From: a virus
Taxonomy: Duplodnaviria > Heunggongvirae > Uroviricota > Caudoviricetes
IMG/VR virus record: IMGVR_UViG_2737471842_000006
Coordinates: 1-36,776 of that record
DNA: 36,776 nucleotides
Direction: 5' to 3' (one strand)
Position numbers and translations under genes: made by a program. Shown one piece after another: positions 5,083 to 36,776 of the stretch. Each line of letters starts with the position of its first letter. Within the stretch, counting starts at the first letter, position 1. The notes beneath the pieces are model-generated. The model saw only the letters and a program-made list of their open reading frames with translations, searched no databases and was not told the origin of the DNA.

Positions 5083-5664
5083 ATGAACAACTCATGGTGG
5101 CAGGAACTAATGCATTTTTTCCTGCAAGGAATGACACTTAAACAGTTGATTCATATGCTAATCATCCTAATCATATTGATTATTGTTATGCCTGTAAGCG
5201 TAAAAGAATGGATAAACCTGCATAATCCAGAAATCCTTCCTCATTACTGGATGTATTACATCCTGTTGTTTTGCGTTAGCTATGTGCTTAACGGCGTTGT
5301 TAATTCCGCTTATCACGCTGTGACTGAAAGAATTGAGATATTCGCTGCTCAGAAGCGCAAATCTAAAGAAGAGAAATACGTGCAAGATTTGTTTGATTCG
5401 TTAACTCTTGGAGAAAGAGCGTATTTGGCATTCGCTGTAGCCGCTAATAACCAGCTAAAGACAGAAAAGGGAAGCCCTGAAGCAATCTCATTGCTCGAAA
5501 AAGGGCTTCTTATTCGGGTACCTTCTGCTACTGGATATCCTGAAATCGACCGTTTTGTTATCCCGGAACGCTATAGAAATGAGTGCTACATTAGGTTTGC
5601 TGGGAAGAAAGACAGTCTTATGGATGAACTTATCGCTCAGGATAAGCATGGCAAAAACAAGTAA
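5083..5664 (+). CDS. sieB: SieB-like superinfection exclusion / abortive infection membrane protein
   Basis: 193-aa ORF with two strongly hydrophobic N-terminal segments (LIHMLIILIILIIVMPV; YILLFCVSYVLNGVV); matches my memory of P22 SieB; AT-rich; opposite strand to the pL operon. Confidence 0.6.
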   Translation: MNNSWWQELMHFFLQGMTLKQLIHMLIILIILIIVMPVSVKEWINLHNPEILPHYWMYYILLFCVSYVLNGVVNSAYHAVTERIEIFAAQKRKSKEEKYVQDLFDSLTLGERAYLAFAVAANNQLKTEKGSPEAISLLEKGLLIRVPSATGYPEIDRFVIPERYRNECYIRFAGKKDSLMDELIAQDKHGKNK

Positions 5665-31678: not shown

Positions 31679-31795
31679 GACAACCTCCTTAGTTTTGAGC
31701 AGGATACCATGAAAAAAGTAAACATCTTTTGCCTACTTCACATTTGAATGGTTTGTCATTAGGATGTTTCCGGTTTTTTAAATATGGAAATTGAT

Positions 31796-32215
31796 ATGAA
31801 GAGGATTATTGGCGTCGTTGCTGGCGCTATATTGTTATCTGGGTGCGCAACTATTGTTGGTGACGAAACGCAGCTTGTGCAAGTGAACAGCAATCCTTCC
31901 GGTGCGAGCTTTAAGGTAAAAGACGAATCAGGCGTGATTGTTGCGCAAGGTAAGACCCCGCAAGGAGTAACTCTTGCCAAGTCAGATGGTAGTTATTTTG
32001 GCAAAAAGAGCTACCAGATCACTATGGAAAAGGATGGGTACGAACCAGTTACCCTGCCAATCAAAGCCAATGCTAATGGCTGGTATATTGGTGGAAACCT
32101 TGTGTTTGGTGGGTTAATTGGTTGGCTTGCTGTAGATCCTTTTAATGGTGGGATGTATACCTTCAAGCCAAAAGAGGCAAACGCATCTCTTATGCCATCA
32201 ACAAAGCAAGACTAA
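31796..32215 (+). CDS. lipoprotein with PEGA-like domain and Gly-rich C-terminal hydrophobic segment; alternative start 31784
   Basis: MKRIIGVVAGAILLSGC lipobox; NPSGASFKV...GKTPQGVTL...DGYEPVTLPI resembles PEGA motifs; C-terminal GGNLVFGGLIGWLAV. Confidence 0.55.
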   Translation: MKRIIGVVAGAILLSGCATIVGDETQLVQVNSNPSGASFKVKDESGVIVAQGKTPQGVTLAKSDGSYFGKKSYQITMEKDGYEPVTLPIKANANGWYIGGNLVFGGLIGWLAVDPFNGGMYTFKPKEANASLMPSTKQD

Positions 32216-33806: not shown

Positions 33807-35627
33807 ATGACAGATATCACCGCAAATGTTGTGGTAAGCATGCCTTCGCAACTCTTCACTATGGCTCGTTCTTTTAAAGCGGTTGCCAATGGCAAAATTT
33901 ATATCGGAAAAATTGACACTGACCCGGTAAATCCTGAAAACCAGATTCAGGTTTATGTAGAGAATGAAGACGGTTCTCACGTTCCTGTTGCACAGCCAAT
34001 CATCATTAACGCTGGCGGGTATCCTGTATATAACGGACAGATTGCCAAGTTCGTAACTGTGCAAGGCCATTCTATGGCTGTTTATGATGCGTACGGTGTG
34101 CAGCAGTTCTATTTTCCGAATGTGCTGAAGTATGACCCTGACCAACTTAGGCAGGATCTTGCAGGACCAGATGGATATTATCTTATCCCATCTCTTATAC
34201 AGAAATGGAAAGATGATGGTGATTTACGTGGTTGGGGAATAGGAGAAGATGCATTTAACGCAGCTATGACTGAGATATCAGAAAGTGGCGGCGGCGTTCT
34301 TTATGTGAATGAAGACATCATTTTTAGTACAATTCCTATCATGCATAAGCCTGGGGTTACTGTTTACTGGAATAATCATCGTGCAATTGTTCCTGCCGGT
34401 TTGAGTTCAACATATGCGTATATAATGGATGGTGGTGCCGACACGCCTGTATACGATAATACCGATCATTTCACGCTAGCTAACAAGACGAATTGTTATA
34501 ATCTGCATCTTGAGGCATCTGACTATACTGTCGGTGTGAATGCTATTGGTGTATGCGTTAGGCATTGCTACGGATATACGTATGAAGGAGGGGCAATTAT
34601 TGGTTTCAATAATGGTGGTTATTACGATGAATTATGCTATGAAGGTAAAGTTAGTAAATTTACTATGGTTGTGTCCAACTCTAGAGCGGAACAATCAATA
34701 GGATTAAACAGTAATACTACGGATACTTGGTATTCGGAAATTTCCCCTGTTGGTTACGCATATGGCGGTAAAATGAATAGGAGTGGTAATAGCTTAGATA
34801 AGTTTCATCCTTGGGGGAATACTATCGATGATCGTGTTGGCTTAATGGGTAAAATGCATGTGGGATTGTGGGTTACTGAAAACGGAGGCTTTTCTACCTA
34901 CACCAATCTAATTTTGGACACTCCAGTAAGAAGAGATTCTAGTTCAGGTCCATCTAGAACTAATGGTGGTGTGGGTTTGATAAATGATGCGTGGGATACC
35001 AGTTTTGACGGTGTAATCGTCTCATGCTCTAAGCATGATATGGTGGCAAAAAGCACCCTACCAGTAATAACCTCATCACAAGGTGTAACCTATAAAGATC
35101 TTTCAGTTAGTAATCCTGAATACGCAACTGACATATGGGTATCATTTGAAAATAATTCTGGAATAGCTTTAAATCATATTATTGGATATGGATATGCACA
35201 ATTGATGCGTAATGGCGCTGGCATAAGCTCAACATCAGGAGCTGCTTTCGCTCCTGCAAATGGAGTTACCATTTCATTACAGACACTATCTTCTGGAATT
35301 TGGTATAACACATTAAACTTTTCCATCAGGACAACAATAACAGCCACATCATCTGCATCAAGCGATGTAATTGTTAATATTGCTCCTATGTATGGAGTGA
35401 GAAATGGATTTGGAGGGGCAGTTAAGGGAGGGCTAGATGCTTTCTTTTATGCAACCGCAAATACAGCAAAACAACTATATGATGTTTATGTTGAAGTAAC
35501 CTCTGCTAACACCGCCAAGTTTTTATTAACATTCATTGACGGAACAACAAGATATGCTAGATGGACAGATGTATCTAACGGATCTGCAAGGGCTATTTCT
35601 GTATCATGTAATATAGAGGTTAAATAA
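33807..35627 (+). CDS. tailspike protein: P22/Sf6-type N-terminal head-binding domain fused to a divergent receptor-binding domain
   Basis: First about 110 aa ([46 protein letters not shown]...VLKYDPDQ) are the conserved head-binding domain; the rest does not match P22 gp9 as I remember it and is visibly more AT-rich. Confidence 0.85.
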
Positions 35628-35631
35628 CAAT

Positions 35632-35660
35632 CTACAGCCACTATGTAAAAGTGGCTGTAG
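35632..35660. terminator. hairpin between convergent tailspike and acyltransferase genes
   Basis: Perfect 10-bp stem CTACAGCCAC/GTGGCTGTAG with 9-nt loop; T-rich only on the minus-strand side. Confidence 0.4.
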
Positions 35661-35669
35661 GGACTGTGA

Positions 35670-36776
35670 CTACTTGTTAAACCTGCACTCTATGTGTTTA
35701 TAAGTAAATGCAGATGCTAAGATCGTTATTGAAAGACAAATCACAGAGTATATTATTAACTGAGTTGTGTTTGTTTCAGACAGATTAACAAACTTAGAGG
35801 CTATTCTGTAAAATACATGCAGCACTGGTTGATGCAGTAAGTAAATGCTATAGCTAATTTCCCCTAAGAAAGCGATAGACGGAATGCTTAATAACCTTGG
35901 TTTTAGCACAACGCAAGACGCAAACATAAGTGATATCATGATAAATCGATAAAAGCTATATTGTTTTACATCGAAATAGAATGACATATAAAACAAAAAC
36001 GCAAAAACTATATATATAACTGCTCTAAGTGATGTTTTTTCTATGTTTATTTCTTTGATTTTTGCGCAAAGAGCCCCAGCTACAAAGTACGACCACAACA
36101 CTTTATCTTCATAGAAATCGTTGATCAATACAAAGCACCCAAAAGCAATTACCATGTACTTGAATTTTTTAGTATAGAGAGCAGTCGCTAAGAATGGGAT
36201 AGATGCATAAAACTTCCACTCATATGGGAGTGTCCACAATACTATATTTAAAGTAGCATCTCTATGTTCGCCCCAGTATAGCTCAGTTCCAAAAAAACCA
36301 AACCCAAATATTTTAAGTAATTGAGTGACAAATAAAGGAAGGTCTAATTTCCCTAACATCTGTGAAAAATATATTATAGATATTAAAGTAGCGGTAAATA
36401 GATATAATGGAACTAATCTCTTTATTCTTTTTGCGTAAAATGATGTAAAGTCTATTTTATTATTTGAAAGTATTTTTGAAGAGAACAGAAATCCAGTTAT
36501 GCAAAAAAATATCTGAACACCCAAGGCACCAGATTGGCTGAAAAGATAAAAGTTAGAGTAATCAATATTCTTAGTTTTTATCAACATATCACCAATGGCG
36601 TAAGCAGAGTGGTTGATGAAAACGGCGATACATGCAAAACCCCTGAGTCCTTCAATGTACTGAATTTTGCCCTGATCTGTAGACTTTCTAATGAAAATAG
36701 ATGTTGCCATTATTGGTACAGCAAGCATGACCAAATAGATGCAAAAGAAAGACAATGGGTAGTTATAAAGCGGCAT
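35670..36776 (-). CDS. integral-membrane acyltransferase (acyltransferase-3 / O-antigen acetylase family); start codon at the last three bases of the window
   Basis: 368-aa ORF, multi-pass hydrophobic, strongly AT-rich; resembles OafA/Oac-type O-acetyltransferases; sits where P22-like phages keep serotype-conversion genes. Confidence 0.7.
   Translation of the reverse strand: MPLYNYPLSFFCIYLVMLAVPIMATSIFIRKSTDQGKIQYIEGLRGFACIAVFINHSAYAIGDMLIKTKNIDYSNFYLFSQSGALGVQIFFCITGFLFSSKILSNNKIDFTSFYAKRIKRLVPLYLFTATLISIIYFSQMLGKLDLPLFVTQLLKIFGFGFFGTELYWGEHRDATLNIVLWTLPYEWKFYASIPFLATALYTKKFKYMVIAFGCFVLINDFYEDKVLWSYFVAGALCAKIKEINIEKTSLRAVIYIVFAFLFYMSFYFDVKQYSFYRFIMISLMFASCVVLKPRLLSIPSIAFLGEISYSIYLLHQPVLHVFYRIASKFVNLSETNTTQLIIYSVICLSITILASAFTYKHIECRFNK

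Follow-up and report, generated by a model that had tools for sequence, protein, structure and literature searches.

A tailspike gene and, converging on it from the opposite strand, a gene for a putative O-antigen O-acetyltransferase form the right-hand end of the 36,776-nucleotide sequence of IMG/VR virus record IMGVR_UViG_2737471842_000006 (positions 1 to 36,776, hereafter the window). The window phage is of the Lederbergvirus (P22-like) type. A short, perfect hairpin separates the two stop codons, and the receptor-binding domain (RBD) of the tailspike, the hairpin and the acyltransferase gene belong to a mobile block that continues past the window. The features discussed are collected in Table 1.

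Table 1. Features of the window discussed in the text, with positions counted from the first base of the window (aa, amino acids; CDS, coding sequence)
Feature	Position	Strand	Description	Basis
Tailspike CDS	33807..35627	+	606 aa; P22-type head-binding domain and 486-aa pO91-family RBD	PF09008, homology
Mobile block, part inside the window	34199..36776	.	RBD from about residue 131, hairpin and acyltransferase; 2,746-bp block runs 167 bp past the window	
Hairpin	35632..35660	.	Perfect 11-bp stem, 7-nt loop; probable bidirectional intrinsic terminator	Inverted-repeat, folding and terminator scans
Putative O-antigen O-acetyltransferase CDS	35670..36776	-	368-aa membrane acyltransferase consisting of an acyltransferase 3 (AT3) domain only	Open reading frame call, PF01757
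SieB superinfection-exclusion gene	5083..5664	+		PF14163 (E 1e-25)
Lipoprotein-like moron	31784..32215	+	143 aa; lipobox LLSGC	Weak sub-threshold PEGA match

The acyltransferase gene and its surroundings

The ATG of the acyltransferase gene coincides with the last base of the window, and the sequence beyond it was read from contig JUDK01000001.1 (assembly GCA_000798275.1), which shows 0 mismatches to the window over 11,107 nt. In this contig, an in-frame TGA lies 9 nt and a GGTGA 7 nt 5' of the ATG, indicating that the open reading frame is complete and that the ATG at the window edge is the true start. The gene is therefore not a pseudogene truncated at the window edge, a possibility that the original prediction had named as grounds for its own refutation. 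Its GC content is 33.2%, compared with 39.2% for the C-terminal part of the tailspike gene and 47.8% for the remaining window; GC content at third codon positions is 0.34 in the acyltransferase gene, 0.30 in the tailspike gene and 0.58 in a head gene. The AT-rich, foreign composition that had been proposed is evident from these values, and the description of a convergent, multi-pass acyltransferase right behind the tailspike is equally upheld by the open reading frame, the family match and the intact catalytic motifs.

The encoded protein matches the Acyl_transf_3 family (PF01757) with an E-value of 2e-34 and 119.6 bits against a cutoff of 31, residues 39-354 corresponding to positions 2-324 of the 326-position model. 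No SGNH domain and no second Pfam domain is found in the protein, which stops at residue 368 right after the AT3 region, making it an AT3-only enzyme like Oac of phage Sf6 and OacB of phage Sf101. Alignments of the window protein with OacB, Oac, the Oac of phiV10 and 44 database homologues identify R45, H56, F90, R117, R120, W181 and Y312 as invariant or near-invariant. The first five align with R47, H58, F98, R116 and R119 of OacB, each of which abolished serotype conversion when changed to alanine (PMC8952252). They also fall into the motifs described for the AT3 family, namely R/K-X10-H in the first core helix (which includes H25 of OafA), FFxI(S/T)G(F/Y), here FFxITG, and RxxR in the cytoplasmic loop that comes next (PMC9558356). 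R45 and H56 lie in IEGLRGFACIAVFINH; in a set of 45 homologues, H56 never varies and R45 shows at least 90% conservation. F90 lies in GVQIFFCITGFLF, and R117 and R120, the equivalents of Oac R73 and R76, lie in KRIKRLVP; these three residues are invariant in the alignment. For comparison with the polytopic 10-TM core of the TmAT superfamily, an AlphaFold2 model (predicted local distance difference test score 87.2, predicted template modeling score 0.88) is all helical, with about 11-12 long helices that include one extra N-terminal helix. The best Foldseek match of this model in the PDB, human HGSNAT, is weak (E 0.07-0.15, probability 0.8-0.96, TM-score 0.29-0.42), and no AT3 chain is among the matches.

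The hairpin between the convergent genes has arms at 35632-35642 and 35650-35660 that are 100% complementary. The perfect hairpin anticipated by the original prediction is thus present, but its stem is 11 bp long rather than 10 bp. Its folding energy is -21.8 kcal/mol on the plus strand and -21.4 kcal/mol on the minus strand (z-scores -3.8 and -4.8, respectively), and none of 200 shuffled sequences folded as well. A terminator scan flags the hairpin in the direction of the acyltransferase gene, where it is followed by the T-rich tail ATTGTTATTT. All 13 acyltransferase-bearing loci have an identical hairpin. In the prophage of E. coli MB06231, where the position of the acyltransferase is empty, the tailspike gene is followed by a diverged version (GCCACT...AGTGGC). 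The hairpin therefore belongs to the tailspike, and the idea that it is specific to the tailspike-acyltransferase pair was rejected.

The first 314 bp on the 5' side of the acyltransferase gene are non-coding in the contig; they are followed by a 55-bp intS remnant, derived from the 3' end of that gene, by about 330 bp in common with Sf101 and by the attachment site (att). The 13-bp core of the att, TTTCACGATTACG, is about 700 bp from the ATG and runs directly into the start of the sbcB coding sequence (MMNDGKQQSTFLFHDY), with dacD adjoining. The same core in the 5' end of sbcB is the attachment site of Sf101 (PMC4159516). At the other end, the prophage integrase gene and the reconstituted sbcB lie just before window position 1, and the flanking host sequence matches E. 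coli chromosomes at 100% identity. Both window ends are gene boundaries, one at the end of a 63-aa xis-like gene overlapping int and the other at the acyltransferase ATG, which places the integrase gene and both att junctions just outside the window. The upstream partner genes that might have been hidden beyond the edge did not materialize: between the acyltransferase ATG and the att, the contig contains no partner gene and no truncated open reading frame, but non-coding DNA and the int remnant leading to the att site in sbcB. A 64-aa open reading frame called between the att and the int remnant (L006 9457-9651, minus strand) has no Pfam match and is homologous to the orf17 region of Sf101. 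The intS remnant itself (L006 9627-9681, 320-374 bp past 36776) is of the argW type, although the prophage uses a different integrase and the sbcB site, and oacB of Sf101 is preceded by the same remnant. Its presence in both the sbcB prophage and Sf101 points to an Sf6-like phage as the source from which the conversion region was acquired.

A cassette slot and a mobile block

The position behind the tailspike is occupied in several phages by O-antigen acetylase genes whose role in conversion is experimentally proven. In Sf6, the tailspike gene is followed by a terminator, the convergent genes oac and intS, and then attP. In Sf101, it is followed by the convergent oacB and then by the att in sbcB, and in phiV10 a convergent oac gene, annotated for host O-antigen acetylation and superinfection immunity, follows the tail-fibre gene. 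The assignment of the locus to the serotype-conversion position of P22-like phages, as originally proposed, is supported by these cases. P22-like prophages encoding the identical 368-aa protein are found at three places in the chromosome: sbcB, torT and argW, the last beside an intact intS. Three complete E. coli genomes carry related tailspikes at argW, and the content of the slot differs at this site: the acyltransferase is present in GPEC1292 (98.3% nucleotide identity) and in a further locus (L007), gtrABC is present in 30COLEC, and the slot of MB06231 is empty. A stretch of 219 bp, comprising the 3' end of int and the next 164 bp, is 98% identical upstream of gtrA and upstream of the acyltransferase. 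Judged by these comparisons, the slot between tailspike and int is a cassette site for O-antigen modification genes, and in the window it holds a single AT3 gene in place of gtrABC.

Oac of Sf6 resembles the window protein in being an AT3-only enzyme of a P22-like phage with a conserved RxxR motif, and the gene order through intS and attP (argW) is the same as in GPEC1292 (L001) and L007. It differs in sequence (about 19% identity) and in length, with 333 aa compared with 368 aa and an extra N-terminal helix in the window protein. The RBDs of the two tailspikes are unrelated, the PDB match to the Sf6 tailspike being limited to residues 1-119, and the host O-antigen of Sf6 is built on the rhamnose backbone of S. 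flexneri, whereas that of the window phage is probably O91. OacB of Sf101 is the best phage match (30% identity, E 6e-18) and shares the convergent position behind the tailspike, integration at sbcB with the same 13-bp core, the upstream region including the intS 3' remnant, and the five conserved essential residues. However, Sf101 carries another cassette between the int remnant and the tailspike, its RBD is without similarity, and two residues of OacB that are essential but not conserved, W71 and S146, have no counterpart in the window protein. The AT3 gene of the E. coli O157 phage phiV10 likewise lies directly behind, and convergent with, the tail-fibre gene, but its product is about 17% identical.

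Among O-antigen glucosylation systems, the gtrABC operons of P22, SfV/SfX and 30COLEC share the tailspike-intS slot, the 219 bp upstream and the same presumed purpose. Unlike the window locus, they comprise three genes, for the GtrA flippase, the bactoprenol glucosyltransferase GtrB and the serotype-specific GtrC, and they add glucose via undecaprenyl-phosphate glucose (Und-P-Glc). The window gene also lacks a GATC cluster of the Dam/OxyR type, with no GATC within 550 bp of its ATG. Phase variation of the gtr type through Dam and OxyR was considered and rejected, since the sole upstream GATC in the window's contig is 558 bp from the ATG and no cluster is present. Salmonella OafA and OafB (GtrC family II), including GtrC of BTP1, are AT3 proteins with R-X10-H and RxxR motifs that O-acetylate the O-antigen, and some are prophage-borne. 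In these proteins, as in OatA, a periplasmic SGNH domain is fused C-terminally to the AT3 domain, and in the Salmonella enzymes it performs the final transfer, whereas the window protein ends after the AT3 region.

The prophage of GPEC1292 (L001 3180-11300) is a deletion remnant in which a ral fragment abuts the ejection-protein gene. The bulk of its phage genes are gone, the head genes apparently among them, yet it retains an intact tailspike gene, acyltransferase gene and intS next to argW.

Four prophages of the epsilon15-like group (Uetakevirus; L039-L042), to which the window phage does not belong, carry the same acyltransferase gene (about 96% amino acid identity) together with the same RBD. 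The RBD, hairpin and acyltransferase align with these prophages as one ungapped-like BLAST segment of 2,746 bp at 97.05% identity (96.7% in L041), with a GC content of 36.7%. The tailspike of these prophages, also convergent with the acyltransferase, has 713 aa and a different N-terminal anchor, and holin and endolysin genes adjoin (cluster member P0124). On the right, the block ends at extended coordinate 36943, close to coordinate 36932, where similarity to the gtr prophage has its edge; the near coincidence of the two edges defines the cassette boundary. The occurrence of one 97% identical block in two phage genera indicates that the RBD and the acyltransferase moved as a unit, along with the terminator and presumably the promoter. 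The pairing of acyltransferase and tailspike put forward by the original prediction thus recurs in an unrelated genus. Further E. coli homologues from public databases, at 34-38% identity the next closest, are also convergent and located behind tailspikes of epsilon15-like prophages.

A megablast search of the acyltransferase gene against 50,697 phage records returned zero matches. The protein belongs to a 90%-identity cluster of 71 members. Most of them are full-length at 368 aa, several entries are partial or truncated, and every named member comes from E. coli. Assemblies that carry the gene include GCA_012246905.1, GCA_013069065.1, GCA_025609495.1, GCA_043010025.1, GCA_016672245.1, GCA_019584135.1, GCA_012892075.1, GCA_977064895.1 and GCA_029848515.1. 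The most distant copies, found in the two different phage genera, are separated by 20 synonymous and 14 non-synonymous changes, giving a ratio of non-synonymous to synonymous divergence (dN/dS) of 0.18, and closer pairs give values of 0.0-0.11. The acyltransferase gene is under purifying selection.

The receptor-binding domain and the likely acceptor

The head-binding domain of the tailspike (PF09008) covers residues 1-113 with an E-value of 3e-67. No solved relative of the RBD was found, as PDB sequence matches are confined to tailspike residues 1-119. Tail proteins of the Kayfunaviruses pO91 (70%) and PH1061, of two Kutterviruses and of one Hafnia phage share 66-73% identity with the RBD. 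The matching gene of pO91 encodes the sole tail protein at the gp17 position of that phage, and two reviews citing Chen et al. 2023 report the receptor-binding protein (RBP) of pO91 to be O91-specific (PMC11891642, PMC13433624).

Within this RBD family, two subtypes are associated with the slot. Subtype A is found in GPEC1292, MB06231, 30COLEC and L007, whose RBDs are more than 90% identical to one another and 81-84% identical to that of pO91. Subtype B, which shares 72-74% identity with subtype A, is found in the window, at the torT and sbcB loci and in the Uetakevirus copies. Both subtypes occur with the same acyltransferase, synonymous divergence (dS) being 0.02 between the enzymes compared with about 1.1 between the RBDs. 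This pairing suggests that both subtypes see the glycan modified by the enzyme.

GPEC1292 is the sole complete genome with the acyltransferase, and it has wzx and wzy genes of the O91 family. MB06231 also has O91-family wzx and wzy, so that two of the three complete genomes with this RBD family are O91. Because O91 wzy occurs in 27 of 5,426 complete genomes, this proportion represents a strong O91 enrichment; conversely, 1 of the 27 complete O91 genomes contains the acyltransferase. In DAFMDA010000021.1, an sbcB prophage with a left arm 99.8% identical to that of a module carrier lies about 26 kb from an O91 wzy gene. GenBank numbers offer a further indication: that of an entry with the exact acyltransferase (EFO2975817) is 1,969 below that of an O91 wzy fragment (EFO2977786), and the corresponding gap from a subtype-B tailspike, HGC1861587 to HGC1862599, is 1,012. 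Such close numbers may reflect an origin in the same or sister genomes as O91 wzy. Assemblies retrieved with one O91 wzy fragment do not overlap with the carrier assemblies listed. Given an RBD 70% identical to the tail protein of a reportedly O91-specific phage and several carriers with O91 wzy, the O91 O-antigen is the likely substrate, and its O-unit is the most likely acceptor, at somewhat better than even odds.

The prophage of 30COLEC (L021; L027 22296-23530) lies in a host with a frameshifted wzx, the predicted specificity of its tailspike does not match the serogroup of its host, and it carries gtrABC. The sbcB att lies about 17-26 kb from the O-antigen cluster, in an interval that runs from sbcB through the his operon, wzzB, ugd and gnd to wzy (L036 12883-20552; L054, GCA_021485615.1). 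At this distance, a converting prophage and its presumed target locus could be transferred together in one recombination or transduction event.

Proposed function and alternative explanations

The acyltransferase is probably a prophage-encoded, stand-alone inner-membrane O-antigen O-acetyltransferase that is expressed in lysogeny and masks the phage receptor. Expression in the lysogen would rely on a weak promoter of the gene itself, which we infer to lie within the 167 bp upstream, at a predicted distance of about 25-40 nt from the ATG, and transcription would end at the hairpin shared with the tailspike. By analogy with Oac, OacB and the Oac of phiV10, the enzyme would take an acetyl group from cytoplasmic acetyl-CoA. 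The acetyl group would then pass through a transmembrane pore, with R45/H56, the FFxITG motif and R117xxR120, to a hydroxyl of an O-antigen sugar on the periplasmic side. The acetylated O-antigen would be a poorer substrate for binding and cleavage by tailspikes of the same RBD family. The lysogen is then predicted to resist superinfection, both by its own phage and by lytic phages with the shared RBD, and to display an altered serological epitope.

Several observations weigh against this interpretation. Identity to the characterized acetylases is low: 30% to OacB by tblastn and, in a multiple sequence alignment, 26% to OacB, 19% to Oac and 17% to the phiV10 Oac. AT3 enzymes also modify enterobacterial common antigen (ECA), capsules, peptidoglycan, osmoregulated periplasmic glucans (OPGs) and antibiotics (PMC9558356). 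A promoter scan of the upstream region found no sigma-70 consensus promoter, with nothing at 9/12 matches or better on the coding strand. The only candidates are weak, a TTATCA-N18-CATTAT arrangement and a TATCAT -10 element, both within the proximal 70 bp or so, a segment that is almost identical in P22-like and epsilon15-like contexts. Other observations bear on O91 in particular. Subtype B, at 72-74% identity to subtype A, may differ from it in specificity, and 30COLEC, a host of a subtype-A RBD, has an O21-family cluster. No O-acetyl group is present in the O91 repeat unit as published (PMC8244359); this fits the rarity of the gene but gives no positive support. The closest complete genomes to the his-side flank of the window strain (99.5% identity) are not among the 27 O91 genomes, and the host flanks are 98-99% identical to O91 and O21 genomes alike and hence uninformative about its serogroup.

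The low identities and the functional breadth of the AT3 family (PMC9558356) leave room for an enzyme that acylates a different glycan, such as ECA (as WecH does), colanic acid, a group 4/K capsule or OPGs, with the slot behind the tailspike serving as a convenient site for a moron. Identity to proven O-antigen acetylases does not exceed 30%, no specific NCBIfam equivalog applies, and in E. coli phages some RBP subtypes follow a receptor that is not the O-antigen (PMC10408124). This explanation is nevertheless unlikely, since Sf6, Sf101, phiV10 and, with gtrABC, the 30COLEC prophage all use the slot for modifying the O-antigen. The gene is, moreover, inherited together with an RBD homologous to an RBP reported to be specific for the O91 O-antigen, and its carriers are enriched for one O serogroup. 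Far less probable still is a silent or decaying AT-rich passenger, possibly silenced by H-NS. The GC content of 33% and the failure to detect a consensus promoter would fit such a passenger, but the open reading frame is full-length in most cluster members (several are partial or truncated), dN/dS is 0.11-0.18 and all conserved catalytic residues are kept. The gene also persists in a prophage that is otherwise a remnant, and it has survived transfer from one phage genus to another.

A further alternative accepts acetylation of the O-antigen and differs in the benefit, which might be protection from other phages with the same RBD, antigenic change or immune evasion, or avoidance of the trapping of progeny virions on lysed-cell debris. 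The RBD family also occurs in lytic Kayfunavirus, Kuttervirus and Hafnia phages, and the defective GPEC1292 prophage keeps its tailspike, acyltransferase and int. Identical acyltransferases are paired with two RBD subtypes that differ by a dS of about 1.1, and the prophage already has SieB for exclusion. We consider it less likely than not that a benefit of this kind is what keeps the gene. It is compatible with receptor masking by an O-antigen O-acetyltransferase, and the phenotype measured for Sf6 and phiV10 is self-exclusion.

Two other genes of the window may be mentioned here (Table 1). The presence of SieB implies a second, independent exclusion function beside the putative O-antigen modification. 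The lipoprotein-like moron lies between the gp16 ejection-protein gene and mnt, and sister prophages (L003, L008 and L009) have a Rap1a-like gene (PF18602) in the gp16-mnt region instead.

An NCBIfam search with the acyltransferase found no specific family or equivalog, returning just a sub-threshold SucT match, and the closest relatives outside its own 90% cluster in a database search, none of them characterized, show identities of 51% and of 42% or less. By sequence, the acyltransferase is not an orthologue of any named enzyme. It is classified here with the AT3-only O-antigen acetyltransferases of phages, as an uncharacterized member in the classical location, and the trick it would perform is already well known. 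What the locus adds is a 2.75-kb module of RBD and enzyme found across genera and the testable prediction of an O-acetylated O91 variant. A tentative extension of this prediction is that the module is a self-contained 'recognise-and-mask' cassette that moves between P22-like and epsilon15-like genera and creates an undescribed O-acetylated form of O91.

O91 is a main serogroup of non-O157 Shiga-toxin E. coli, and phage RBPs are in development for its detection. If O91 is acetylated as proposed, the variant would be invisible to gene-based serotyping by wzx and wzy and may escape O91-specific phages, tailspike or RBP reagents and antibodies. As an AT3-only enzyme with a predicted and chemically well-defined acceptor, the acyltransferase could serve as a model for AT3 action without an SGNH partner. 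The locus further indicates that recombination can pass an RBD and a receptor-masking enzyme together from one phage genus to another, which helps to explain why O-antigen modification genes are so frequent behind tailspikes.

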